Source: Pseudodesulfovibrio piezophilus C1TLV30
Lineage (GTDB): Bacteria > Desulfobacterota > Desulfovibrionia > Desulfovibrionales > Desulfovibrionaceae
NCBI RefSeq assembly: GCF_000341895.1
Contig: NC_020409.1
Span: 30,001 to 62,000 of the forward strand
Length of the DNA: 32,000 nt
Direction of reading: 5' to 3'
Position numbers and translations under genes: made by a program. Below are positions 9,793 to 28,015 of the stretch, in pieces. The notes beneath the pieces are model-generated. The model did not search any database. It was given only the letters and a program-made list of their open reading frames with translations, and was not told the origin of the DNA. The number at the start of each line of letters is the position of its first letter. The first letter of the stretch is position 1.

Positions 9793-12338
9793 GAGAAACG
9801 CTGTGCGACCTTGGTCAATTGGAATTCCAGAGGAGAGGCGTCATTCATGACGTGTTTGCTCAAAACCAGAGGACTCATATACGCTTCGCGCCAATCAAGC
9901 ACGAGAGTGAGTCCTGTTTCTGTTTCCGTGATCTCTTTGACAAGGGGACGGATATCAAAATTCTTCATCCCTTTCTTGGTGCGCTTTTCAACGATATATT
10001 TGTCGGTTTCCATGAAGTCCTTCCAGCGCGCGAGGTGTGCTTCCTGATTGTGAGCCAGGGATAACTCAAAGACTTCCTCTACTGCTTGGGGTTGCTTTTT
10101 CCCCATGGAGAGACGATCCGCTTTGAGGGGTTTCAGTCCAAGGGGCATGGTGGGCATCAAGCGCTTGATAACTTCCACCGGTTCAAAGTCTTCGCGTAAA
10201 TAGACATTGATCCACTCTGCTGCGCTTGAGACGCCAACCGGGAGAGCCTTGCCGAACGAGAGTCGGGGCATGGGATGAAAACCGGCGGAAAAGCTCATAG
10301 GTAGACCTGCTCTACGAAAAGCACGTTCAAAAACGGCCTGAAGCTCAAGCTGGCTTAAATACGTTGCTGGTCCATTCTTCTCGTACCAGAGACGGAAGTG
10401 AGCTGCTTTTATGGTCAAATCGGGAATCTCGACGGAGTAGGGAGGCTGTTCTCCTTCCTGGTCTCGTTCTTCGAAGATCATTCTTGGGCGAATATCTTTT
10501 ATTTTGGCCTGTTCTTTCAGTGTGGATTTTTTTTCACCCACCCCACACACACCGCAATTGTGGCATGCATTGTACCGACAGTCTTCGGTTATTTTTTCAT
10601 CAAGCGCTCGGTTCCGTTCCTTCAGCAGGTATTTCTTGGTCAGCCCACAGGACAAGTGGTCCCATGGAAGCGCGCCTTCGGGGTCTCTGGAACCAATGAA
10701 CTCATCCCAGGACAAACCAGCTTCATCCATTGCTTCTTTGTAAGGTTCGAGTCTGAGATGGTCTTTCCAACTCGAAAAAAGGGCGCCTTTGGCGTATGCT
10801 TTTTCCACGACCTCTGCCAACCGTCTGTCCCCACGCGAGAAAACACCTTCAAGTGATGTCATCTCCGGTTCATGGAATCGCATACTGATGCGTTTATGTC
10901 GGCGGAATTGGTCTCGCAAATACCCGATACGCCGATATATTTCATCATAGGATATTTGGGGTTCCCACTGAAATGGTGTTTGTGGTTTCGGGACAAATGG
11001 TGAAACTGCCGCTGTTACCTGAAGACGTTTGATATGTCTGCCTGCGGCGTCTCTGACTTTGAGACAGAGGTTGACTATGGCATCGAGGTCCGCGTCCGTT
11101 TCGGTCGGCAGTCCTATCATGAAGTAGAGTTTGACTCCTTGCCAACCGTTTTCAAAGAGCATGCGAACGTGTTCGAGCAGGCCTTCTTCGTCCACGCCCT
11201 TGTTGATCACATCTCGCAGGCGCTGACTCCCGGCTTCGGGGGCAATGGTCGCTCCAGTCCTTCGAATGGAGGAGATTCGTTCCATGATCGGGGATGAGAG
11301 TGAACCGACCCGGAGTGAAGGAAGTGATATGGCAATTTGTTCCGAGGCACATTGATCAAAACTGCTGGTAAAAAAAGTATTGAGAGCAGAGAAGTCTCCG
11401 GTGGAAAGGGAAAGCATGGATGTTTCTTCATAGCCCGTTTCATCCAGACCACGGGTGAGGATGTCCCCCAGGGTTTCAAGGGAGCGCTCTCGGACCGGGC
11501 GGTAGATCATACCCGCTTGGCAGAATCGGCAGCCTCGGGTGCATCCTCTGGCTATTTCCATTGTCAGGCGATCATGGATTGCATCAAAGGCGAGCACCTG
11601 GCCGCGTGGGAAGTGTGCCTTATCCAGATCGGCCACAATGGCTTTTTCCACGGTCTCATATCCTGGCAGCAAAGGCTTGAGTGGGGTGTGCGGTCCTTGG
11701 TCTTCAAAAAATGAAGGTATATAAACACCTGAAATGGTGGCGAGTTCTTTGAGGAGGTCGTCTTTCGAGGTCCCTGTGGCTTTGGCTTGTTCTATGCTGG
11801 ACAGGATGGCGGGAAGCGTTTCTTCACCGTCTCCGATGACCATGGCATCAAAAAAGGGAGCCACAGGCTCTGCGTTGAACGTTGCACCACCTCCTGCGAT
11901 GACAAGTGGGTGGGAGGTGTCTCTTTCTGCGGCTCTGAACGGAATATTCGCCAGATCAAGCATGTAGAGGATATTGGTATAGCAAAGCTCATGCGTCAGG
12001 CTGAAAGCGATAGCATCGAGTTCTCCCAAAGGCGTATCGGATTCCAGGGTTGTCAGTGGTGTGTCGTGTTCGCGCAGGAGGGCAGCGGTCTCTTCACATG
12101 GTGTGAAAACTCTCTCTGCCCAGAACTGTGGGTGAACATTAACTGTTTCTGAAAGGATTTTCTGTCCCAGATAGGACATGCCCACTTCGTACATATCGGG
12201 GAAGGCGAGGCCGCATCGGACAGTGACATTGGCCGGGTCCTTGATGGTGACACCCCATTCGCTACCAAGGTATCTGGACGGTCGGGGAAGGATGGGCAGA
12301 AGTTCTTTCATGGGTAGTTGACCACGTATTGGCATCAT
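9789..12338 (-). CDS. Radical SAM protein, fusion of a TIGR03960-type B12-binding-like/radical SAM enzyme with a C-terminal DUF2344 (TIGR03936-type) domain
   Basis: The CxxxCxxC cluster motif is ARGCTRGCRFCQAG, and the N-terminus LLPILPRPSRYLGSEWG is typical of the family. The track ORF begins at a TTG at 12389, just below (downstream on the - strand of) the terminator hairpin at 12401-12428. I prefer the ATG ATG at 12338/12335. Confidence 0.85.
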   Translation of the reverse strand: MMPIRGQLPMKELLPILPRPSRYLGSEWGVTIKDPANVTVRCGLAFPDMYEVGMSYLGQKILSETVNVHPQFWAERVFTPCEETAALLREHDTPLTTLESDTPLGELDAIAFSLTHELCYTNILYMLDLANIPFRAAERDTSHPLVIAGGGATFNAEPVAPFFDAMVIGDGEETLPAILSSIEQAKATGTSKDDLLKELATISGVYIPSFFEDQGPHTPLKPLLPGYETVEKAIVADLDKAHFPRGQVLAFDAIHDRLTMEIARGCTRGCRFCQAGMIYRPVRERSLETLGDILTRGLDETGYEETSMLSLSTGDFSALNTFFTSSFDQCASEQIAISLPSLRVGSLSSPIMERISSIRRTGATIAPEAGSQRLRDVINKGVDEEGLLEHVRMLFENGWQGVKLYFMIGLPTETDADLDAIVNLCLKVRDAAGRHIKRLQVTAAVSPFVPKPQTPFQWEPQISYDEIYRRIGYLRDQFRRHKRISMRFHEPEMTSLEGVFSRGDRRLAEVVEKAYAKGALFSSWKDHLRLEPYKEAMDEAGLSWDEFIGSRDPEGALPWDHLSCGLTKKYLLKERNRALDEKITEDCRYNACHNCGVCGVGEKKSTLKEQAKIKDIRPRMIFEERDQEGEQPPYSVEIPDLTIKAAHFRLWYEKNGPATYLSQLELQAVFERAFRRAGLPMSFSAGFHPMPRLSFGKALPVGVSSAAEWINVYLREDFEPVEVIKRLMPTMPLGLKPLKADRLSMGKKQPQAVEEVFELSLAHNQEAHLARWKDFMETDKYIVEKRTKKGMKNFDIRPLVKEITETETGLTLVLDWREAYMSPLVLSKHVMNDASPLEFQLTKVAQRFS

Positions 12339-19862: not shown

Positions 19863-21050
19863 TTAGAAGTTGACGAAGTGTTTTTTCGCATCGAGCACTT
19901 TGCCAAGATATCGTCTTGTTTCTTGATAAGCGAGATGTTTGCGCAGGGTGCTGTAGACCTTAGCCGGCGGGGCTGCGTTGATAGCGGCTACTGCTTTTTT
20001 GCGGTTTTTATTAAAAGTGTTCAAAACAGTTCCAGCTCCTCCGTTATAGCCAGCTATGACACAATATTCTCTTGAGACAGGGCTTTTGATCCCATTGAGG
20101 AAACGGGTGTCGAGTAAATGAAGATATGCCGAGCCGTATGTTATGTTGGTTGCCGGCATGAGTAGATCCTTTCGGGATGGGGTGCCTTTTTTCCCATGCA
20201 AAAATTGATAAACATCGCTACCGGCAGTTTTGGGAACAACCTGCATAAGTCCCAGTGCCATGGCTGCGCTCGTGGCAAATGGGTTGAAGTCCGATTCTAC
20301 CTTCATGATGGCATAAATGAGATTTTTGCTGACAGAAAATCGTTTTGCTGCCGATTTGACCAGTTGTTCGTACTTTTTCGCTCTGATGTCCAGATGATCC
20401 CTGACCATGCTTATGCTGACAGAGTGGACTGTCTTGTGACCATTCTTTTTTGTTTCAAGAGAGTTTTTGATCAGATAGTCGGCAAAGTGTTCAGCACGCC
20501 ATGCCCAACGGATATCCTTGTTGTCTTGATCCTTAACTTCGCCAAGAAGAAAAGGTGTATCACCCAGTTTTACCGTTTGTGCAGAGTAGAGATCGACAGC
20601 CCTGGGATCTCCAGGGGTCAGGAGAGTTGTTACAATCGCATTCTTCAAGTTTTTTTTTGGCGTTTCTGTTGCAAGGGTTTCGATTGTTATGACACCGCTA
20701 TCGAAATCGATGCTGGCTCTGGAGAGATAATTGTCCGTATATTTGACGTAACTTTTAGGTTCAGGAAGGCGGACATTCTCTTTCCCCCAAACTTTTTCGA
20801 CTGACGTGACAAGCTTCTCAACCATCGAGGAGAAGTGTTTGATATCCGTTGCAAGGGCTTCAGGGTTCGTTGCATAGCCGATGGCTTTATCTCGTGCCAA
20901 TGCCTGTGCTGCGGTTGCAGGATTTCCTGTCGCTGCCGCTCGGACAATGCGTACAGCATCATATCGTGTACATGAGACCATGGATATACAGAGAAAACAG
21001 GCTAGTATGAGGTGGTTCATTATATGCAACACTCTAATTCTACTTGACAT
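19863..21050 (-). CDS. mltC: Membrane-bound lytic murein transglycosylase C-like lipoprotein
   Basis: The sequence is colinear with E. coli MltC as I recall it: YVKYTD...ITIETL, FADYLIKN, the SLT catalytic context IMKVESDFNPFA, ALGLMQVVPKTAG, AGYNGGAG and RRYLGKV. The lipobox is ISMVSC. Confidence 0.9.
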   Translation of the reverse strand: MSSRIRVLHIMNHLILACFLCISMVSCTRYDAVRIVRAAATGNPATAAQALARDKAIGYATNPEALATDIKHFSSMVEKLVTSVEKVWGKENVRLPEPKSYVKYTDNYLSRASIDFDSGVITIETLATETPKKNLKNAIVTTLLTPGDPRAVDLYSAQTVKLGDTPFLLGEVKDQDNKDIRWAWRAEHFADYLIKNSLETKKNGHKTVHSVSISMVRDHLDIRAKKYEQLVKSAAKRFSVSKNLIYAIMKVESDFNPFATSAAMALGLMQVVPKTAGSDVYQFLHGKKGTPSRKDLLMPATNITYGSAYLHLLDTRFLNGIKSPVSREYCVIAGYNGGAGTVLNTFNKNRKKAVAAINAAPPAKVYSTLRKHLAYQETRRYLGKVLDAKKHFVNF

Positions 21051-21152
21051 TTTTTATGCGACTGGCGAATGTGCCTAAGACGTTATGAATATTTTGAAGT
21101 AATTTCAAGTTGGTGTAAATCTTGACACAACAGGTTCACCCAGGAGGGTGGT

Positions 21153-21461
21153 ATGATTGATACACCGATTGTCGAGATCATCGATCCTGACCTTGAAGAG
21201 TTGATGGAACGTTTTTTTGATAATTCTCGCAAGGATATTAAAAGCATGCGCACTGCTTTGGAGTGCAAGGATTTTGAGACGCTGACCAGGCTCGGGCATA
21301 CGGCCAAAGGAACTGGGTATGGATACGGTTTCAAGGGAATGGGGAAGATTGGTCTTGCTCTTGAAGAAGCCGCAAAAATGAAAGATTGTGTAACAAGCCA
21401 TATGCATATTGATCGTATGGAACTGTATCTGTCCACTGTTAAAGTGAAATTCGGTAAATAA
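21153..21461 (+). CDS. Stand-alone Hpt (histidine phosphotransfer) domain protein
   Basis: 102 aa with a GGAGGG RBS. The Hpt signature is LTRLGHTAKGTGYGYG (HxxKG) within a four-helix-type sequence. Confidence 0.7.
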   Translation: MIDTPIVEIIDPDLEELMERFFDNSRKDIKSMRTALECKDFETLTRLGHTAKGTGYGYGFKGMGKIGLALEEAAKMKDCVTSHMHIDRMELYLSTVKVKFGK

Positions 21462-21560
21462 CTCGGCTTGTACAATTGTATTGTACCCAGTGAATCTGAG
21501 CACGAGGGTGTCTTCGGTTTTTATTTCTCGGTCTGAGCTCCATACTGGTCAACAAGGGCG

Positions 21561-21623
21561 GGGTAAAAGAAAATTCAAAAGGGCTTTCTCTTAAGAGAAG
21601 GCCCTTTTGAATTTTCTTTTACC
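21561..21623. terminator. 63-bp near-perfect palindrome; bidirectional intrinsic terminator
   Basis: The arm gggtaaaagaaaattcaaaagggc (21561-21584) is the exact reverse complement of 21600-21623. The central 15 nt (21585-21599) continue the stem with one G-U pair around a short apical loop. The inner GC stem is flanked by an A-tract and a T-tract, so it reads as stem plus U-run on both strands. Confidence 0.7.
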
Positions 21624-21930
21624 CGTTCAACCGTTGGCGGATGGACTGGAACGTTTTGTTAAGTAGGCTTATGGCCTTTTCAACCTTCTGTTTATGTTGG
21701 TCCCCGATCGCTTTCCAGCCTGACCTGTATCCCAGGTACTTTATATATAAGCACGATCCATGCCAGTGGATAGAGGCCTGGGCTGATTATTTTTACTATG
21801 TACTATATCAGAGAGTTAAGGGCTGTCCCAGCGCTTTCGTCTTTTCCGATAGGGGAAAAAATGTGCATCTCTGTCGAAAAAATGACAGGGCAGCATATAT
21901 TTCCGATATATTCTCATTGCCTGCCTCTGC

Positions 21931-22722
21931 CTATAAAAGTTCCATGGCTGCATCAACATCCCAGTTCTCGTGAACGACTTTGTTTAACGCCGCGACGATT
22001 TTGGCAGGATGTTTGTGCTGGAAAATATTTCTGCCGACAGAGAGGCCGGATCCACCAGCCTGGATGGAGTCATAGACCATTTGCACCAAATCACGGTCGT
22101 TTTCCATCTTCGGTCCACCTGCTATGACCACGGGAACACAACATCCGTCTGTAACTTGAGTGAAAGACGCCGGGTCTCCAGTATAGTTGACCTTGACAAT
22201 ATCCGCACCGAGTTCAACACCGGCACGAGCACAATGTGCGACAATGGCGGGATCGTATTCGTTGGTAATTTTGGGGCCTCGGGCGTACATCATGGCCAAA
22301 ACAGGCATTCCCCATTCATTGGCTTCAGAGCAGAGGGCTCCCAGGTCTGCCAACATATTGGGTTCTGTTTCATCGCCTAGATTGACATGGATTGAGACCG
22401 CATCAGCACCAAGTTTGATAGCGTCGGTAACAGTCCCGACCATCGATTTCGCATTGGGAAATGGAGAAAGGGAGGTCGACGCTGAAAGGTGAATGATCAA
22501 GCCGATGTCCTTTCCTCCAGCTCTATGGGAGCAGCGTGGGATTCCTTTATGCATGAGCATGGCGTTTGCCCCACCTTCTGCAACCTGGTTGACGGTATCT
22601 CGTAAATCAATCAGTCCATAGATGGGGCCGATAGTAACGCCATGATCAAGTGGGACAACAATCGTACGGCCGTTATTCCTGTTCATGATTCTTTCCATTC
22701 GAATCGCTTTACCCAGATGCAT
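21931..22722 (-). CDS. aroA': 2-amino-3,7-dideoxy-D-threo-hept-6-ulosonate synthase (archaeal-type AroA', DhnA-family class I aldolase)
   Basis: Close colinear resemblance to MJ0400-type ADH synthase as I recall it: RMERI, VVPLDHGV..GP..GLID, VAEGGANA, GLIIHLS, GADAVSIHVN, MMYARG, GADIVK..YTG, VVIAGGPK and VGRNIFQH. The ATG at 22722 has AAGGAG 6 nt upstream. The track start at 22758 falls in the U-tract of the upstream terminator. Confidence 0.85.
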   Translation of the reverse strand: MHLGKAIRMERIMNRNNGRTIVVPLDHGVTIGPIYGLIDLRDTVNQVAEGGANAMLMHKGIPRCSHRAGGKDIGLIIHLSASTSLSPFPNAKSMVGTVTDAIKLGADAVSIHVNLGDETEPNMLADLGALCSEANEWGMPVLAMMYARGPKITNEYDPAIVAHCARAGVELGADIVKVNYTGDPASFTQVTDGCCVPVVIAGGPKMENDRDLVQMVYDSIQAGGSGLSVGRNIFQHKHPAKIVAALNKVVHENWDVDAAMELL

Positions 22723-22756
22723 TGTGTTCTCCTTGTTTGGAGCCGTGGTGCGGCCC

Positions 22757-22792
22757 AAAAAAAACGAGGCCGCGGTGTCCCGCGGCCTCGTT
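22757..22792 (-). terminator. Strong intrinsic terminator inside the aroA' leader (attenuator terminator)
   Basis: On the - strand it reads aaCGAGGCCGCGG-gaca-CCGCGGCCTCGtt followed by TTTTTTTT. That is an 11-13 bp GC-rich stem, a 4-nt loop and a U8 tract. It ends 34 nt before the aroA' ATG. Confidence 0.85.
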
Positions 22793-22838
22793 AGTGATTC
22801 GTTGTTTATTATGAACTAGTGCACACCAAGACCGCAGG
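22780..22838 (-). promoter_or_regulatory. Candidate antiterminator pairing of the aroA' leader
   Basis: On the - strand, CCUGCGGUCUUG (plus coordinates 22827-22838, leader codons 19-23) can pair with the 5' terminator arm CGAGGCCGCGG (22780-22790). This gives 11 pairs including three G-U, with one bulged U. The pairing is mutually exclusive with the terminator. Confidence 0.5.
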
Positions 22839-22893
22839 TATTTCTAAAATAGAAGCTAAAAAAGAAAAAGAAACGAGCGGTATTTTTATGCAT
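22816..22893 (-). CDS. Candidate Phe/Tyr-rich leader peptide MHKNTARFFFFFSFYFRNTCGLGVH (25 codons)
   Basis: The ORF runs from the ATG at 22893 to the TAG at 22816-22818 on the - strand. Seven Phe and one Tyr codon fall within nine consecutive codons. The stop codon lies just 3' of the antiterminator segment. There is no obvious Shine-Dalgarno sequence. Confidence 0.5.
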   Translation of the reverse strand: MHKNTARFFFFFSFYFRNTCGLGVH

Positions 22894-22902
22894 GATTTAT
22901 TT

Positions 22903-22932
22903 TGATTAGCTGATGCTCCTGACGACTGTCAA
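22903..22932 (-). promoter_or_regulatory. Possible sigma70-type promoter for the aroA' leader
   Basis: On the - strand it reads TTGACA (22932-22927), an 18-nt spacer, then TAATCA (22908-22903). This would put the transcription start only a few nt before the leader ATG. The -10 match is modest. Confidence 0.35.
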
Positions 22933-22964
22933 GTGAAGTTCCATTATGATCTCAGATTATCGAA

Positions 22965-23348
22965 TCAATCAGCCAGTGCGATGCATTTGAATTCGACGAG
23001 TCCGCCAAGAGGAAGGGCTGAGACTTCAATTGCAGCTCTGGCTGGCTTATGAGCCGAGAAGTATTCGGCATAAATGGCATTCAGATTTGGGAATTGGCTC
23101 ATGTCAGTAACAAAGACATCAACGCTAAGTACTTTATTCAGCCCGGAACCTCCGGCGGCAAGAATCGTTTTCAAATTCTCAAGGGCTTGTCGGGTTTGGG
23201 CCTCGAACCCAAGGGCAAGTTCCCCTTTCTCTGGAATCAGCCCCAGTTGTCCGGAAACATAGATTTTCCCATCAGTTTTAGTCGCTTGAGAATACGGTCC
23301 TACGGCAGCAGGTGCTTGATCAGTATGGATAAGCTTGATGTCAGACAT
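22965..23348 (-). CDS. ridA: RidA family (YjgF/TdcF) reactive enamine/imine deaminase
   Basis: 127 aa with family-typical sequence throughout: APAAVGPYSQA, IYVSGQLGL, NLKTILAAGGS, KVLSVDVFV, PARAAIEVSALP and VEFKCIA. Confidence 0.9.
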   Translation of the reverse strand: MSDIKLIHTDQAPAAVGPYSQATKTDGKIYVSGQLGLIPEKGELALGFEAQTRQALENLKTILAAGGSGLNKVLSVDVFVTDMSQFPNLNAIYAEYFSAHKPARAAIEVSALPLGGLVEFKCIALAD

Positions 23349-23368
23349 GATATACTCCTTTTTATCAA

Positions 23369-24331
23369 TTAATTTCTAACCCACAGATATTTGCCTGTAA
23401 AGCTTGCGGGGAGCATCCTGACGATCTGAACAATACCGGCCATGACCATGATCGCAAAGAAGAGCCGCCCCCAGAATATGGCGTGAAAATTACTTCCGAT
23501 AAGCATGAGGAGAAAAGTATCTTCAATCAGAGAATGGCACAACCCCATGAGCGTGAGTGAGTAAAAGACATCTTTCTTGCCAATCGTTTCATTACGGGCT
23601 TCATTGATAATCAATCCACCCCCATAGGACAGGCCCATAGTGAGACCTATGACTGTGATTGCAGATGCTTTAGGGCCGATACCGATAGCTTTCAGGATGG
23701 GGCGCAGGACTCTGTTTATGAGGTCTATGACCTTGATGAACTGAAGAATTCTCATGATGGTCATCAGGCCGAGAATAATAAAAAAAATGGAGCCCAGAGT
23801 TCGGATTTGATCCAAGACCCATAAAAAGAGAGAGGTGGAATGCGTTATTTCTGGGGCAGCATGGAAAGCAAAAATCGCTTGTTCTTGCAAAAGGCCAGTC
23901 GTTGTAAAAAAAATGTGGAGAAGGAAGCCGAGGATCAATGCTCCTGTCAGGCGGATAAAGCATTGAAAGAAAAATCGAGCGCCGGATTTCCGGGCAATGG
24001 AACTTTCCATTGGGAGAGAATGGGCAACAAGTATGAGGACTGAAAGGACTGATGCCTGAGCAACTGTCAACGTCGTTTCAGATGCCAGAGAAAGAAAGAC
24101 GATGAGTCCTGCATAAGTTGTATTGATTATGGCGGTCCCCCATACGAGACCCATTTCAGGAGGGAGTCCCAAAGGTCCCATAATTGGGGTCAAGGGCCAT
24201 GCCAGATATTGGATAAGGCCAAGTTCTTGAAATACTTTGACAAGAAGGATGATTGGAATCATGACCTTGAACATTTCAAGGCTGGCCTTAGCCGCATCTT
24301 TTAGCAAGTTCTTCAGGGTATTAAGCATCAT
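23369..24331 (-). CDS. Nucleoside-recognition (Gate) domain membrane protein resembling the FeoB permease portion without a G domain
   Basis: 320-aa polytopic protein whose sequence pattern resembles the Gate / FeoB_C / Gate membrane region. It lies downstream of feoB. Confidence 0.7.
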   Translation of the reverse strand: MMLNTLKNLLKDAAKASLEMFKVMIPIILLVKVFQELGLIQYLAWPLTPIMGPLGLPPEMGLVWGTAIINTTYAGLIVFLSLASETTLTVAQASVLSVLILVAHSLPMESSIARKSGARFFFQCFIRLTGALILGFLLHIFFTTTGLLQEQAIFAFHAAPEITHSTSLFLWVLDQIRTLGSIFFIILGLMTIMRILQFIKVIDLINRVLRPILKAIGIGPKASAITVIGLTMGLSYGGGLIINEARNETIGKKDVFYSLTLMGLCHSLIEDTFLLMLIGSNFHAIFWGRLFFAIMVMAGIVQIVRMLPASFTGKYLWVRN

Positions 24332-24386
24332 TTTCCCAATTCAGTTCTTCTCGCTCCCGGACCATAGGTCAATCAGGGGGAAAAGA

Positions 24387-24414
24387 AAAGGGAAGCCCTG
24401 GAGGACTTCCCTTT
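24387..24414 (-). terminator. Intrinsic terminator after feoB
   Basis: On the - strand it reads AAAGGGAAG-uccuccaggg-CUUCCCUUU followed by UCUUUUCC. It starts 23 nt after the feoB stop. Confidence 0.55.
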
Positions 24415-24436
24415 GATTGAGTCATATTACTTACTG

Positions 24437-26623
24437 TTAGAGGAGCGCGTTGGTGATGTTGAAACCGAGGACAGCCAAGACAAAAGCAAGGGTTGTCGAA
24501 CCGATAACACTGTAGGATGCCCATTTCCAGCTGGACTCTCTGGCCATGGCGACGACTGTCACAAAGCAAGGAGCGTACAACATTGTAAAGATGATCAGTG
24601 CCACAGCCGAAGCCGTGGTGAATTCGGGATCTTTCACAAGCTGAACAGAGAGAGGTTCGACTTCTTCAGGATCAACTTCTCCGATGGAGTAGGCTGTGCC
24701 GAGGGTAGAGACGATGACTTCCTTGGCCGCAAAGCCACCTGTCAGAGCGATATTGGTACGCCAGTTAAATCCAGCAAGCTTGGAAATGGGTTCCAAGGCA
24801 GTTCCAATGGACCCTGCGATAGTTCCGCGAATTGCTTCTTCTGCTTCGAAGTTATCGATGTCGGTGATTTTGTCTTCGAGTTCAGCCACTGCTTCTTCCG
24901 GGGCATTGTCACCAAGAGCTTCGATTTGTGCAACTATTGGGGCGCGTTGAGCTTCAAAGCCAGCGGCTCGTTCTTCGGACATCTGCGGGAAGGTCATCAT
25001 GACCCATATCAAAATGGATATGCCGAGAATGATGGTACCGGCTTTCTTGATATATTCCCAGGAACGCTCCCATGTGTGAATCAGAACACCTCGGAAGGTT
25101 GGCATACGGTAAGGGGGAAGCTCCATGACGAATGGAGTGGCTTCACCTTTGATGACAGATGACCGGAGCATGCGTGCCACAATCAAGGCCATGCACCATG
25201 CACCCAGAGTGATCATCATCATGACAGAAGCTGCATTGGTCGGGAAGAACGCTGCTGTCAACATCAGGAAGACAGGCACCTTGGCACCACAAGTCATGTA
25301 TGGTGCAACGAAAATAGTGGCCAATTTTTCCTTTGGACTTCTCAGGGTTCTGGTAGCCATGACGCCTGGCACCGCACAACCTCCAGCAATACCGCCAGAG
25401 ACGATGAAGGGTAAAACTGATGTTCCATGAAGACCAAAAATCTTGAAGACCTTGTCAAGCATGTAGGCCATACGTGCAATGTAACCAGAGTCTTCCAGGA
25501 AGGAGATCATGAGGAACATGCACATAATAAGCGGAACAAATCCCATAACGCCGCCGACACCATCGATAATACCTGAGACGATCAGAGAACGCAGCAAGCC
25601 GTCGGGTAATAAATTGGTCGCGGTTTCGTTCGCCCATCCGAAAAAGTTTTCCACCCATCCCATGGGAATCTCACCCACGCTGAAAGTGACCTGATAAATT
25701 ACATAGATTATGGCAAGCATAATCAGTGGTCCAAGAACTGTATGCGTCAGGACCTTATCCATTTTGTCGGAACGGCTGATACGATCTTCGTTGTGGACTG
25801 GGTAGGAGACTACATCCTTGATAATTCCGGCAATAAATCCATAGCGATAGTCGGCGATAATAGCGTCCGGAGAAGCTTTTAAAGTCGTTTCTGTATGCTG
25901 ACCGACTTTTTTGGCCATCGCTTCCAGTTTATCCGACAGTGCGCGATTGGCCATCCGCCCCTTGACCATGACTTCTTCGTCACCTTCAAGGTATTTGATC
26001 CCTGTCCATCGTGCAGGAACTTTGCTGGTAAGAAAATTTTCCGCTTCAATGATTTTCATCATATCGTCGAGAACCGGGTCCAGGTCTGGACCATAGGAAA
26101 TATTCAAAGGATTCCACTGTCCTTTTCTTTCCTTGGAGAGCTTGAGCGCGGCAGAAAGCAGTGCATCCGTGCCTTTGCCTGAGCGGGCTACCGTTTCGAC
26201 AACTTCGCATCCGCTGAGTTGAGCCAGGCGTTGACTATTAATGCTTTTTCCACTGGATTTGACTTCATCCATCATGTTCAGCCCGAGTACCAGGGGCACA
26301 CCGAGTTCCATGATCTGCACAGCCAAGTAGAGGTTGCGTTCCAGGGCATCGGCGTTCAGTACATCAATAATGGCTTCTGGGCGTTCGTCGACCAGGAAAT
26401 TTCGAGCGACAATTTCTTCCTGTGTATACGCAGTCAGAGAGTAAGTTCCAGGGAGGTCAACGATTTCAAGAGAATCATTTCCGCTGTGAATGTAACCGAA
26501 TTTTTTGTCAACAGTGACCCCTGGCCAGTTGGCGACATGTTGCCGTGCGCCGGTAAGGGCATTAAAAGTCGTTGTTTTACCGCAGTTTGGATTGCCTGCG
26601 ATGCCGATTGTGTGCTGTGCCAT
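24437..26623 (-). CDS. feoB: Ferrous iron transport protein B
   Basis: The N-terminal G domain has motifs GNPNCGKTT (G1), DLPGTYS (G3) and NMMD (G4). It is followed by a large polytopic permease domain; 728 aa in total. Confidence 0.95.
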   Translation of the reverse strand: MAQHTIGIAGNPNCGKTTTFNALTGARQHVANWPGVTVDKKFGYIHSGNDSLEIVDLPGTYSLTAYTQEEIVARNFLVDERPEAIIDVLNADALERNLYLAVQIMELGVPLVLGLNMMDEVKSSGKSINSQRLAQLSGCEVVETVARSGKGTDALLSAALKLSKERKGQWNPLNISYGPDLDPVLDDMMKIIEAENFLTSKVPARWTGIKYLEGDEEVMVKGRMANRALSDKLEAMAKKVGQHTETTLKASPDAIIADYRYGFIAGIIKDVVSYPVHNEDRISRSDKMDKVLTHTVLGPLIMLAIIYVIYQVTFSVGEIPMGWVENFFGWANETATNLLPDGLLRSLIVSGIIDGVGGVMGFVPLIMCMFLMISFLEDSGYIARMAYMLDKVFKIFGLHGTSVLPFIVSGGIAGGCAVPGVMATRTLRSPKEKLATIFVAPYMTCGAKVPVFLMLTAAFFPTNAASVMMMITLGAWCMALIVARMLRSSVIKGEATPFVMELPPYRMPTFRGVLIHTWERSWEYIKKAGTIILGISILIWVMMTFPQMSEERAAGFEAQRAPIVAQIEALGDNAPEEAVAELEDKITDIDNFEAEEAIRGTIAGSIGTALEPISKLAGFNWRTNIALTGGFAAKEVIVSTLGTAYSIGEVDPEEVEPLSVQLVKDPEFTTASAVALIIFTMLYAPCFVTVVAMARESSWKWASYSVIGSTTLAFVLAVLGFNITNALL

Positions 26624-27180: not shown

Positions 27181-27212
27181 GTGACGATTGGGGACAATAT
27201 CATTTATTTATT

Positions 27213-27234
27213 GTGACAGAGATGATTTCTGTCA
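27213..27234. repeat. Inverted repeat TGACAGA-N8-TCTGTCA upstream of the REC-like/PilZ gene
   Basis: 7-bp perfect arms at 27213-27219 and 27228-27234 in the divergent intergenic region. It may be an operator, but that is untested. Confidence 0.3.
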
Positions 27235-27343
27235 GGGTTGGAGTAAAGGTGTTTTTCCAATCAGAAAAAAGGATCGTTCACCTTGCTTGTCAATATGGAG
27301 CATTTATGGTCCTATGCATCTCTGTTTTGGGAGGCTTGATACG

Positions 27344-28015
27344 TTGAAAACAAAGATTTTACTTATAGCTGAAGCGGGGTTGGCCCGAACGGCTTACATC
27401 AAAGTCCTTCAGGGTTTGGATGTTCAGGTGGACTGTATTTCTTCGCCGGATGGCATGACGGCTGCTCTTACATGCGTCGCATATAGCGGGCTACTTGTTG
27501 ATGTTCCCACCATGATTCGGTGTGATTGTGAAGATAAGAATAGAATCACCCGGATAATGGATCGGTTTCCTGTTCTGCGATTGATGTACAATCCTCATTT
27601 TGGAGGGATTCGTGGACTTGCGCAAGGGGGGACTCTTCGCGATAATAGGGATCTCGGTGAGTTTATTCTCGAAGAATGCGTTCCGTTTTATCCAAGGTCA
27701 ATACGAGTGGCGCCGAGAAAGGAAGTCATTCTTAATGTATTGCTTTTGGATACCATATGTGATGCCGCTTTGGCTGCAGAGCGAACAGTGACAGTCAATC
27801 TTTCAGAGCACGGATGTTTCATTTATTCTGTGAGTGACTGGCAATTACTGAGTTCAGCATGGATAGTTGTCAATGAATTTGAGGACAAAACTCCTATAGA
27901 GTTGAAAATACGCTGGTGCGGTCGCTGGGGAGAAGCTATGCGGATGCCGGGTATAGGAACGAGTTTTGAATCAATGACACCGCAGCAGTCTACGCAGCTT
28001 TTTTCATTACTATAA
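27344..28015 (+). CDS. Degenerate receiver (REC-like) domain fused to a C-terminal PilZ domain
   Basis: The PilZ motifs are RVAPRKE (RxxxR) and NLSEHGCF (NxSxxG). The N-terminal KILLIAEAG...GLLVDVP resembles REC but lacks the DD acidic pair. I prefer the TTG at 27344, with GGGAGG 9 nt upstream. The ATG at 27314 and the track start at 27188 are alternatives. Confidence 0.6.
   Translation: MKTKILLIAEAGLARTAYIKVLQGLDVQVDCISSPDGMTAALTCVAYSGLLVDVPTMIRCDCEDKNRITRIMDRFPVLRLMYNPHFGGIRGLAQGGTLRDNRDLGEFILEECVPFYPRSIRVAPRKEVILNVLLLDTICDAALAAERTVTVNLSEHGCFIYSVSDWQLLSSAWIVVNEFEDKTPIELKIRWCGRWGEAMRMPGIGTSFESMTPQQSTQLFSLL

Follow-up and report, generated by a model that had tools for sequence, protein, structure and literature searches.

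The closest described counterparts of the element reported here are the attenuators pheL-pheA and pheM-pheST of gamma-proteobacteria (RF01859). They share with it a short ORF with clustered Phe codons, a set of 1:2, 2:3 and 3:4 pairings that exclude each other and of which the last is an intrinsic terminator, control of an aromatic biosynthesis gene, and read-through when the ribosome stalls for Phe-tRNA, which is the behaviour we propose for our locus. The differences are equally clear: the gene controlled here is the archaeal-type ADH synthase gene aroA' and not pheA, the leader is apparently translated from a leaderless mRNA devoid of a Shine-Dalgarno (SD) sequence, region 2 lies within the ORF, and the Phe codons are located in the loop of hairpin 1:2 instead of in or just before region 1. 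A search with the Rfam model Phe_leader (RF01859) gave a sub-threshold match at 22760-22890 on the minus strand, which scored 26 bits (E = 0.42) where the gathering score is 55. This is far below the threshold, so that the characterised attenuator provides no support by homology, and we consider the two elements analogous and not homologous. Furthermore, a megablast of the region against plasmids gave no hits.

For the same downstream gene family in the same bacterial order, Song et al. (2005, BMC Biol 3:13, PMC1173090) list in their Table 7 a 'putative attenuator' ahead of the aroA' superoperon of D. vulgaris. The paper gives a predicted terminator and antiterminator only and does not use the term 'leader peptide'. 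The preliminary description of our locus had asked whether an aroA' attenuator was already known; what this paper offers is a putative attenuator before the superoperon, with no leader peptide. As judged from the paper's listing, the D. vulgaris element belongs to the superoperon copy of the gene, whereas ours has a Phe-only leader and precedes a stand-alone paralogue. The former is presumably a relative of the Phe/Tyr/Trp leaders that we find at four superoperon loci (L081, L082, L084 and L085). Apart from this paper, a literature search on attenuators, leader peptides and aromatic genes in Desulfovibrio and deltaproteobacteria returned nothing specific: Rodionov et al. (2004) mention neither attenuators nor T-boxes nor aromatic genes, and Leyn et al. 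(2016), Korolev et al. (2016) and Naville & Gautheret (2010) contain nothing on an aroA' leader element. What is new here is almost certainly a textbook kind of Phe attenuator at a gene, and in a lineage, where such control has barely been described.

A second parallel comes from the polycysteine attenuators of mycobacteria (bioRxiv 10.1101/834739; Shell et al. 2015, PMC4633059), in which downstream biosynthetic genes are reported to be controlled by a short ORF enriched in codons for a single amino acid, its AUG being the start of a leaderless mRNA. These sORFs differ from our element in phylum and in amino acid (Cys) and have no sequence relationship to it, while the element described here has a canonical intrinsic terminator and a covarying antiterminator.

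The aroA' locus and its leader ORF

We analysed a stretch of 32,000 nt (the window) of Pseudodesulfovibrio piezophilus C1TLV30 (GCF_000341895.1, NC_020409.1, positions 30,001-62,000, forward strand). Coordinates are those of the window, and the features described lie on its minus strand unless otherwise stated. The aroA' gene (21931-22722, ATG at 22722-22720) is a stand-alone, monocistronic paralogue whose product matches the profiles of 2-amino-3,7-dideoxy-D-threo-hept-6-ulosonate synthase, or ADH synthase (TIGR01949, 395 bits for a cut-off of 299; NF005556, 408 bits), and it is preceded by the SD sequence AAGGAG (22729-22734). It is convergent with an Hpt gene, and its transcription unit ends at a bidirectional terminator with a 20-bp stem detected by a terminator scan (21571-21614); sub-threshold Rfam matches of this hairpin to miRNA and plastid families were judged spurious. 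Profile searches of the window ORFs (NCBIfam and Pfam), together with the locus comparison, revealed neither aroB' nor pheA downstream of aroA', and no further aromatic gene was found by NCBIfam or Pfam profiles among 26 larger ORFs of the window. The upstream gene is ridA (22965-23348; TIGR00004, 142 bits).

Between ridA and aroA' we found an ORF of 25 codons followed by UAG (22816-22893, minus strand), which encodes MHKNTARFFFFFSFYFRNTCGLGVH. Re-reading the letters bears out the preliminary description, which had counted seven Phe codons and one Tyr codon within nine: they are codons 8-16 (22846-22872), FFFFFSFYF, with Ser as the remaining residue. It had also cautioned that a T-rich tract can yield Phe codons by chance, a concern that does not hold. 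In none of the six frames does any other stretch of the 32 kb reach eight aromatic codons out of nine, no run of that density appeared in 100 local shuffles, and the corresponding runs of most related lineages include TGG and TAY codons, and these could not arise from a T-tract by chance.

For comparison with the window we retrieved 80 aroA' loci of Desulfovibrionales and their relatives and, separately, four superoperon loci. The 80 loci come from several families of Desulfovibrionales and from some Desulfobacterales, and their AroA' proteins are 69-90% identical to that of the window. A search of relatives for a Phe-rich mini-ORF had been suggested at the outset, and an ATG-initiated ORF of 20-40 codons with an aromatic run, homologous to the window leader, precedes aroA' in all 80; its ATG, frame and stop are conserved throughout (80/80), including at loci that lack ridA. 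Compared with the closest leader (L004), the window leader shows ten synonymous and two non-synonymous codon differences, three TTT/TTC swaps among them, and the Phe codons of the relatives likewise alternate synonymously between TTT and TTC. From such indirect signs, namely the conserved ATG, frame and stop, the mostly synonymous changes and the fixed reading phase of region 2 (see below), we infer that the leader ORF is probably translated.

The preliminary description had noted a sigma-70-like promoter, TTGACA-18-TAATCA, that would give an almost leaderless transcript, and had counted this, together with the lack of an SD sequence before the leader ATG, as a difficulty. Both observations are correct. 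The perfect -35 box TTGACA (22927-22932) is separated by an 18-nt spacer from the -10-like hexamer TAATCA (22903-22908), and the leader ATG follows 9 nt after the latter. Among 71 related loci, however, the same arrangement recurs: a perfect TTGACA lies 29-34 nt ahead of the leader ATG in 66, the distance from the end of the -10 to that ATG is 5-11 nt in 69, and an SD-like motif is found ahead of the leader ATG in five as against 66 ahead of aroA'. This shared promoter geometry, combined with the missing SD across relatives, removes the two caveats by making them a conserved design, and it indicates that transcription would start at the AUG or 1-3 nt before it, giving a leader mRNA that is predicted to be leaderless or nearly so.

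Terminator, antiterminator and hairpin 1:2

The strong terminator claimed earlier is confirmed as CGAGGCCGCGG-GACA-CCGCGGCCUCG (22765-22790, minus strand), an 11-bp stem with a GACA loop followed by a U8 tract (22757-22764). Its predicted energy is -25.3 kcal/mol and it ends 34 nt ahead of the aroA' ATG; a T-run after the hairpin is also present in related loci. In terms of the classical nomenclature, the 3' arm CCGCGGCCUCG is region 4 (22765-22775; folds and covariation), and the 5' arm CGAGGCCGCGG plus the first loop G constitutes region 3 (22779-22790), for which constrained folds and covariation indicate pairing with either region 2 or region 4. Region 2 (22820-22838), delimited by folds, duplex prediction and covariation, has the core CCUGCGGUCUUG (22827-22838), which lies inside the ORF 9-20 nt ahead of the UAG, where the antiterminator segment had been placed from the outset. 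This core is the 5' strand of the antiterminator and, together with GUGUGCA (22820-22826), the 3' strand of hairpin 1:2.

The pairing of this segment with the 5' arm of the terminator stands, while its register had to be revised. In place of 11 pairs with a bulged U we found 12 contiguous and bulge-free pairs with CGAGGCCGCGGG, three of them G-U and one involving the first loop G, with an energy of -24.0 kcal/mol; three more pairs (GUG with CAC) extend it. For the window, the leader-to-arm duplex amounts to -25.4 kcal/mol compared with -12.3 kcal/mol in shuffles, and none of 200 shuffles equalled it (z = -4.8). The folding z of the intergenic RNA as a whole is -4.6.

Hairpin 1:2 was absent from the preliminary description. 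Region 1 (22877-22892), the 5' strand of an anti-antiterminator, is formed by the first ORF codons and pairs in minimum free energy (MFE) folds with region 2 and with the bases that follow, giving -17.1 kcal/mol and enclosing the Phe codons in the loop. A ribosome stalling at codons 8-12 would cover region 1. Region 2 accordingly has a dual use: it is coding sequence in a fixed phase, and it pairs with region 1 or region 3. Of the features of leader-peptide attenuators of the trpL, pheL and hisL kind, clustered end-product codons, an intrinsic terminator, a mutually exclusive antiterminator and a 1:2 anti-antiterminator are present. Downstream of the U-tract, the segment GGGCCGCACCACGGCUCC (22739-22756) folds into a small hairpin; its GGCCGC repeats the 5' arm of the terminator and could pair with region 4, a 4:5 pairing that is weakly enriched over 71 loci (median z -1.4).

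Constrained folds allowed us to place a ribosome at successive positions of the leader. The antiterminator has its full -24.0 kcal/mol for A-site codons 8-14 and drops to -11.8 kcal/mol for codon 16, the final Phe codon, where a stalled ribosome would cover part of region 2; when the ribosome stands on the UAG, the terminator forms. For the full-length leader, the terminator is favoured at equilibrium even when region 1 is masked (-35.4 kcal/mol), and read-through would therefore rest on the order of synthesis, as we assume by analogy with classical attenuators.

Altogether, the element is very probably a ribosome-mediated leader-peptide attenuator that ties expression of the stand-alone aroA' to the supply of charged tRNA-Phe. 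We infer four of its steps, namely the transcript start, the translation of the ORF, the stalling and the regulatory outcome. Transcription would begin at the sigma-70-type promoter within about 3 nt of the AUG, and the 25-codon leader would be read as a leaderless mRNA. When Phe is plentiful, the ribosome would pass the Phe codons and region 2 and reach the UAG, with region 2 either occluded or re-captured by region 1 after release, leaving regions 3 and 4 to form the terminator of about -25 kcal/mol and RNA polymerase to halt at U8. When Phe-tRNA is scarce, the ribosome would stall with one of codons 8-14 in its A site, covering region 1 and leaving region 2 free. The 12-bp duplex of regions 2 and 3 (-24 kcal/mol) would arise ahead of the synthesis of region 4; the terminator would then be blocked and aroA' transcribed. 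RNA that is not translated is predicted to adopt the 1:2 plus 3:4 fold and to terminate. This bears on read-through from ridA, which had been raised as a possible source of aroA' transcripts: a terminator scan found no terminator of ridA itself ahead of the leader, and read-through RNA may thus arrive, but it would stop, untranslated, at the attenuator terminator.

Conservation, covariation and competing explanations

An aromatic-codon mini-ORF, a terminator and an alternative pairing are reported for all 80 fetched loci, the four superoperon loci share this architecture, and the design of a mini-ORF with a switchable terminator is common to all 85 related sulfate-reducer loci examined. A strict scan detected the terminator in 71 of 81 sequences (the 80 loci and the window), missing ten loci with interrupted T-runs, and an anchor-based search, which recovered all but two, detected it in 81 of 83. 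In the relatives the terminator lies 34-101 nt ahead of aroA'.

Examining the stems for compensatory changes, as the preliminary description had advised, revealed covariation in both the terminator and the antiterminator. For the terminator, 91% of cells are paired, nine of 13 pairs have changed on both sides, and none of 500 shuffles did as well. For the antiterminator, 82% of cells are paired compared with 33-43% when the strands are slid against each other. The segment alignment behind the covariation was anchored on G[CT]GG and took the best-pairing occurrence, a choice that somewhat biases the paired fraction. Furthermore, the leader-to-arm duplex was recovered in all 71 scanned loci, with a mean of -28.6 kcal/mol versus -16.7 kcal/mol for shuffled sequences (median z -4.0). 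Arm column 31 pairs with leader column 7 in 69 of 71 distinct sequences (UA 40, CG 13, UG 12, AU 4) and with the 3' arm of the terminator in only 24 of 71, which is a direct argument for an antiterminator under selection. The 1:2 pairing between the 5' and 3' parts of the ORF, with visibly compensating sequences, a median z of -2.0 over 69 loci and p <= 0.05 in 55% of them, appears to have moderate family-wide support. Collectively, conservation and covariation support the pheL-like logic proposed at the outset.

We next asked whether the same observations fit other explanations. The element could be an attenuator whose main product is a trans-acting leader sRNA of about 135 nt or a functional, hydrophobic 25-aa peptide, comparable to rnTrpL/peTrpL of Sinorhizobium. 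Leader peptides with a function and sRNAs derived from attenuators have been reported (PMC6614838, PMC7298713), and the leader peptide does end in a C-terminal motif, [A/V/T]-[C/R/S]-G, held in a fixed frame in 68 of 70 loci. However, the underlying codons point elsewhere. The reading phase of region 2 is equally fixed (68/70 loci, motif NNC-YGY-GGY), its wobble bases are limited to pyrimidines able to pair with G, with only C or U in the wobble position of the Gly and Ala/Val/Thr codons, and the middle residue of the motif switches between Cys, Arg and Ser in concert with a base of the terminator arm that compensates the change. The compensated switch together with the restricted wobble indicates selection on RNA pairing and not on the peptide. 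We consider this explanation improbable, and such a product would add to attenuation in cis and not replace it.

A switch worked by a trans factor, with the ORF being incidental, is less probable again. Such a factor might be a small ligand, an RNA-binding protein like TRAP, PyrR or LicT, or uncharged tRNA, the effector of T-boxes. This explanation could account for the terminator stem, GGGCCGCRGGC...GCCGGCGGCCC, which is unusually conserved in sequence across families and retains a conserved internal mismatch, as a binding site might. The arm conservation is, however, explained by its triple duty, because the arm has both region 4 and region 2 as partners and the latter is itself coding. No T-box (RF00230) or riboswitch matched at E <= 1 in the interval 20000-26000 of the window, where the Rfam search gave sub-threshold hits only, and at gathering score 20 related loci yielded only a cobalamin riboswitch located elsewhere in L024. 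A trans factor would also leave the conserved leaderless ATG, the fixed frame and the stop without a reason, and equally a codon composition that tracks the products of the operon.

Translational control, in which leader translation or structure gates the access of ribosomes to the aroA' start, we regard as very unlikely. The small hairpin at 22739-22756, between the U-tract and the SD of aroA', would fit such control, but the regulated hairpin is followed by U8 and ends well before the ATG, both here and, at variable distance, in the relatives, and the AAGGAG is unpaired in the MFE fold. Finally, a plain terminator of ridA with a separate aroA' promoter, the Phe ORF and the alternative pairing being due to chance, is scarcely credible: the hairpin with its U8 does lie downstream of ridA with no other terminator in between, and T-rich tracts yield Phe codons in one frame of three, but the ORF is kept also where ridA is missing, its run contains TGG and TAY codons in most lineages, the promoter is upstream of the ORF and not between the terminator and aroA', the antiterminator covaries, and substitutions are mainly synonymous.

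Leader codons and operon content

Returning to the leader-peptide attenuator as the preferred explanation, we examined the codons of the run according to the genes that follow. At the 19 fetched stand-alone aroA' loci (20 with the window), the leader has 5-8 Phe codons, 0-1 Tyr and no Trp, save for one C-terminal Trp in L011; in 14 of these 20 Phe-only loci, the window included, ridA precedes aroA' at a distance of about 615-640 nt. The six aroA'-pheA loci have leaders with Phe and Tyr. Leaders with Phe, Tyr and Trp precede all 54 fetched aroA'-aroB' loci and the four separately fetched superoperon loci, where the gene order is aroA'-aroB'-pheA-aroA-tyrA-trp. Both types of paralogue occur in one genome, since L007 and L081 share one contig; L082 is the superoperon copy of P. 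longus, and Pseudodesulfovibrio has both leader types, the superoperon copy carrying a Phe/Tyr/Trp leader (L084 and L085). The codon mix of the leader tracks the amino acids made by the downstream operon. Beyond the preliminary description, the analysis thus adds hairpin 1:2, the register of the antiterminator, and the identification of the gene as a stand-alone paralogue with a Phe-only leader.

In E. coli, the first common step of the aromatic pathway is catalysed by isoenzymes assigned to Phe (aroG), Tyr (aroF) and Trp (aroH), with a specificity set by feedback inhibition and by the repressors TyrR and TrpR. The situation described here resembles it in that parallel copies of a first enzyme would each be tuned to different end products; it differs in that specificity would reside in the leader codons and that DAHP synthase and ADH synthase are unrelated. 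On a wider reading, which we find evenly balanced between right and wrong, the window would be one member of a large RNA family absent from Rfam, made of leaderless aromatic attenuators on the aroA'/aroB' pathway that extend from Desulfovibrionales into Desulfobacterales and whose codon mix was re-tuned after gene duplication, to Phe alone for the stand-alone paralogue and to Phe, Tyr and Trp for the superoperon copy. If true, the two copies would divide the work in the manner of isoenzymes, the division being set by leader codons and not by allostery or repressors.

The family is a candidate new RNA family for annotation, and the window element accounts for an unannotated small ORF and a 'terminator' within an operon-like row of genes. 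It may also offer a compact Phe-responsive switch for the genetics of Desulfovibrionaceae. The family would carry leaderless leader-peptide attenuation beyond actinobacteria and into Desulfobacterota, and it provides a natural experiment in which a single scaffold bears codon mixes of Phe, Phe and Tyr, or Phe, Tyr and Trp that match the output of the operon. Taken together, these leaders would tie the aroA' genes of sulfate reducers, the second stand-alone copy included, to the supply of aromatic amino acids, and the window copy to Phe. The role of the archaeal-type aroA' in bacteria is otherwise based mainly on homology, and the leaders would provide regulatory evidence for it.

A Phe-rich leader between ridA and aroA'

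The ADH synthase gene aroA' (21931-22722; TIGR01949, 395 bits against a cut-off of 299) lies on the minus strand in a row with feoB (24437-26623), a gene for a Gate-domain membrane protein (23369-24331) and ridA (22965-23348; TIGR00004, 142 bits), the last of which is separated from it by a spacer of 242 nt. It is monocistronic and converges on an Hpt-domain gene (21153-21461, plus strand) across a bidirectional terminator at 21571-21614, a 20-bp perfect palindromic hairpin with A- and T-run flanks. This hairpin gives spurious sub-threshold Rfam matches (plastid psbJ 3'UTR, miRNAs), and the ~315 nt between the aroA' stop and the hairpin are without annotated function. No aromatic-pathway genes were found among the 26 larger window ORFs scanned with NCBIfam or Pfam.

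On the minus strand, the spacer carries a TTGACA -35 box (22927-22932), 18 nt (22909-22926), a TAATCA -10 box (22903-22908), 9 nt (22894-22902) and an ATG-initiated leader ORF of 25 codons, MHKNTARFFFFFSFYFRNTCGLGVH (22816-22893). An unpaired stretch of 25 nt (22791-22815) leads to the terminator hairpin CGAGGCCGCGG-GACA-CCGCGGCCUCG (22765-22790) and a U8 tract (22757-22764), and the 34 nt that follow include the AAGGAG Shine-Dalgarno (SD) sequence of aroA' (22729-22734). Each element listed in the preliminary description was found where it had been placed.

The leader ORF is the single spot in 32 kb, across six frames, with at least eight aromatic codons in nine, a density reached in none of 100 local shuffles. 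Furthermore, the fold of the spacer RNA is 4.6 SD better than those of dinucleotide shuffles. Given this unique aromatic run and this fold, chance does not account for the element. Second in aromatic density within the window is FFHYYKYFF (7/9; 27975-28015, plus strand), the C-terminal end of a 275-aa ORF (27188-28015) without NCBIfam match and probably merely a hydrophobic protein tail.

In 66 of 71 loci, a perfect TTGACA precedes the leader ATG by 29-34 nt. Allowing 16-19 nt for the spacer, 6 nt for the -10 box and the usual 6-8 nt from there to the start site, this distance would place the transcript 5' end at, or 1-3 nt before, the leader AUG. An SD-like motif stands before the leader ATG in 5/71 loci and before aroA' in 66/71. 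Since the predicted start abuts the AUG and such motifs are rare at the leader ORF, the leader is most probably translated as a leaderless mRNA. The missing SD sequence and the almost leaderless promoter, both listed earlier as caveats, turn out to be conserved features.

Mutually exclusive RNA structures and their conservation

Constrained folds of the window give -25.3 kcal/mol for the terminator, in which regions 3 and 4 are its 5' and 3' arms. Within the leader ORF, region 2 (CCUGCGGUCUUG, 22827-22838) can pair with region 3 (CGAGGCCGCGGG, 22779-22790) to form an antiterminator of -24.0 kcal/mol when the ribosome A site is at any of codons 8-14, a value that falls to -11.8 kcal/mol with the A site at codon 16. 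The antiterminator pairing of the preliminary description is thus present, with three G-U pairs, but the bulge it had is not, as the folds give 12 contiguous pairs. Folded alone, the leader ORF forms a 1:2 hairpin (-17.1 kcal/mol) in which region 2 and the adjoining GUGUGCA pair with the first codons (22877-22892), and the loop holds the Phe codons. When the ribosome is at the stop codon it masks region 2, and the terminator forms. At equilibrium, masking region 1, the 5' strand of the 1:2 hairpin, is not enough for the antiterminator to win over the terminator; therefore read-through must depend on the order in which the segments are synthesised, as it does in classical attenuators. Read-through transcripts from ridA, in which the SD-less AUG is internal, should fold 1:2 and 3:4 and terminate, so that the attenuator terminator would also serve ridA.

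Right after the U8 tract, GGGCCGCACCACGGCUCC (22739-22756, minus strand) forms a small hairpin; the GGCCGC within it is a repeat of the terminator 5' arm and might pair with region 4. In relatives, an analogous segment (GGCCGC or CGCCGG) follows the T-run, and the enrichment of this 4:5 pairing is weak (median z -1.4, with 39% of the loci below -1.64).

Using a profile from 20 AroA' proteins, we collected 80 loci from species-representative genomes of Pseudodesulfovibrio, other Desulfovibrionaceae, Desulfohalobiaceae, Desulfonatronaceae, Desulfomicrobiaceae and some Desulfobacterales, whose AroA' shares 69-90% identity with that of the window. In each of the 80, aroA' is preceded by an ORF of ~20-40 codons that begins with ATG and contains a dense aromatic run, the mini-ORF for which a search in relatives had been proposed. 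A GC hairpin with T-run was found in 71 of 81 sequences (80 loci and the window) by a strict scan, and in 81/83 by anchoring. Pairing of the 3' part of the leader ORF with the terminator 5' arm was found in 71/71 scanned, the duplex averaging -28.6 kcal/mol versus -16.7 in shuffled controls (median z -4.0). The 1:2 pairing (69 loci) shows visible compensating sequences (CCUGACC/GGUCAGG; CCCGAACCGC/GCGGUUCGGG; CCUCCAACCACAG/CUGUGGUCUGGAGG), with moderate statistics (median z -2.0). The reading phase of region 2 is identical in 68/70 loci, and the nearest leader (locus L004) differs from the window at 12 codons, 10 of them synonymously, including three TTT/TTC swaps.

The compensatory stem changes, proposed as a further test in relatives, were also found, in a gap-free alignment of three anchored segments from 71 distinct sequences. 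For the terminator, 91% of cells are paired, 9 of 13 pairs show double-sided changes, and 0/500 shuffles were as good; for the antiterminator, 82% are paired, compared to 33-43% after shifting the partner by 1-3 columns. Column 31, the arm base just 3' of CCGC, pairs with its leader base in 69/71 sequences (U-A 40, C-G 13, U-G 12, A-U 4) and with the base facing it in the terminator 3' arm in just 24/71; therefore complementarity is kept to the leader and not to the terminator. Its leader partner is a first codon position, where the codon switches between Cys, Arg and Ser accordingly, and the flanking Ala/Val/Thr and Gly codons have only C or U at the wobble position. Judged from these alignments, selection at the wobble positions of region 2 acts on RNA pairing. 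Columns 31 and 42 are unpaired within the terminator in 47/71 sequences, and most superoperon-type (Phe/Tyr/Trp) terminators keep an internal A.G or G.G mismatch there. Across families, the sequence of the terminator stem, GGGCCGCRGGC...GCCGGCGGCCC, is conserved to an unusual degree.

Leader codons and operon content

Context was typed by tblastn of AroB', PheA, MltC and RidA against the loci, two further loci being left unclassified where the downstream DNA was too short. We found that leader codon content follows operon content. Stand-alone aroA' (19 loci, 20 with the window), usually with ridA upstream and no aroB' or pheA within 3 kb, includes the window and its closest relatives and has leaders with 5-8 Phe, 0-1 Tyr and no Trp (one terminal Trp in L011). 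All aroA'-aroB'(-pheA-aroA...) leaders (54 loci and 4 fetched separately) contain Phe, Tyr and Trp, e.g. GFYFWFWF, and the six aroA'-pheA loci of Desulfobacterales have Phe and Tyr with 0-1 Trp.

Both leader types can occur in one genome: the Phe-only, stand-alone locus L007 is on the same 1.99-Mb contig as L081, whose leader MNNFRDQQSIFSYFWLYWYF... heads aroA'-aroB'-pheA-aroA-tyrA-trpEGD. Superoperon copies have leaders ...AYFTNFYFGYWYS... in Pseudodesulfovibrio cashew and ...AYFSNFYFWYWFS... in P. karagichevae, and the other AroA' of each is 89-90% identical to the window protein. For Paucidesulfovibrio longus, the superoperon copy is L082, and an AroA' protein listed under this species name (P0049) shares 81% identity with that of the window. 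Between the paralogues, identity is 64-70%. This coexistence and these identities argue that the first pathway enzyme has a second copy in the window aroA', one tuned to Phe.

In the MAG JBKHAV01, the second aroA' copy (L060:2740-3000; other copy, L050) has unchanged promoter, region 2 and terminator architecture and a leader, MHTVLLAARTAASPCYYPWSISACGVWDGVN, that lacks Phe codons and has just YY..W. The attenuator of this stand-alone paralogue may be decaying, or may be a variant biased towards Tyr/Trp. In the L082 superoperon (10255-10330), tyrA ends ...RWWWRNES*, with three consecutive TGG 4-6 codons before the stop, and a GC-rich hairpin, GGGGGCUCGCCGCC-CUUC-GGCGGCCCCC, with a weak T-run lies 3' of it in the 135-nt gap before trpE; this tail could be the 'leader peptide' of an internal Trp-specific attenuator. 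Divergent amtB-glnK (ammonium transporter, P-II) lies ahead of the aromatic superoperon in four genomes (pair or its stretch at L084:1-1642, L085:1-1642, L081:2915-4652 and L082:2174-3914), a conserved synteny of Pseudodesulfovibrio and relatives. About 2.9 kb ahead of the aroA' superoperon of Solidesulfovibrio alcoholivorans lies a cobalamin riboswitch (RF00174, 70 bits; L024:1-159), truncated by the locus end.

Probable ribosome-mediated attenuation and known systems

Collectively, the observed parts, energies, conservation, covariation and codon-operon correlation support the attenuator interpretation of the preliminary description. Classical ribosome-mediated attenuation, with the logic of pheL-pheA, would best explain the aroA' leader and is very probably its mechanism: from the predicted 5' end the leader would be translated, ribosome stalling would bias a kinetic competition between the structures, and a physiological response would result. 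Besides attenuation, the leader RNA or peptide may have an extra function in trans. An sRNA or peptide function in place of attenuation, translational control, a trans-factor or T-box switch, a plain ridA terminator and a chance ORF are each contradicted, be it by the promoter placement, the terminator geometry or the conservation of ATG, frame and codon mix.

No Rfam family covers the element in the window or in 20 relatives, and the window element is not a member of Phe_leader (26 bits, 55 required). Song et al. 2005 (PMC1173090, Table 7) list, from Merino's web database, a 'putative attenuator' in front of the aroA'>aroB'>...>trp supraoperon of D. vulgaris, and describe no leader peptide. 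In the openly accessible literature we found no other prior mention, and Rodionov et al. 2004, Leyn et al. 2016, Korolev et al. 2016 and Naville & Gautheret 2010 are silent on the element. In mycobacteria, short-ORF attenuators of the leaderless type are known for cysteine (bioRxiv 10.1101/834739).

The element belongs to an already known kind, the leader-peptide transcription attenuators, from which it differs in its predicted leaderless initiation, in a region 2 that is part of the ORF, in regulatory codons placed within the loop of the 1:2 hairpin, in an unusual regulated gene and in paralogue-specific codon tuning. While the mechanism is textbook, the family is broad, biologically informative and apparently uncurated.
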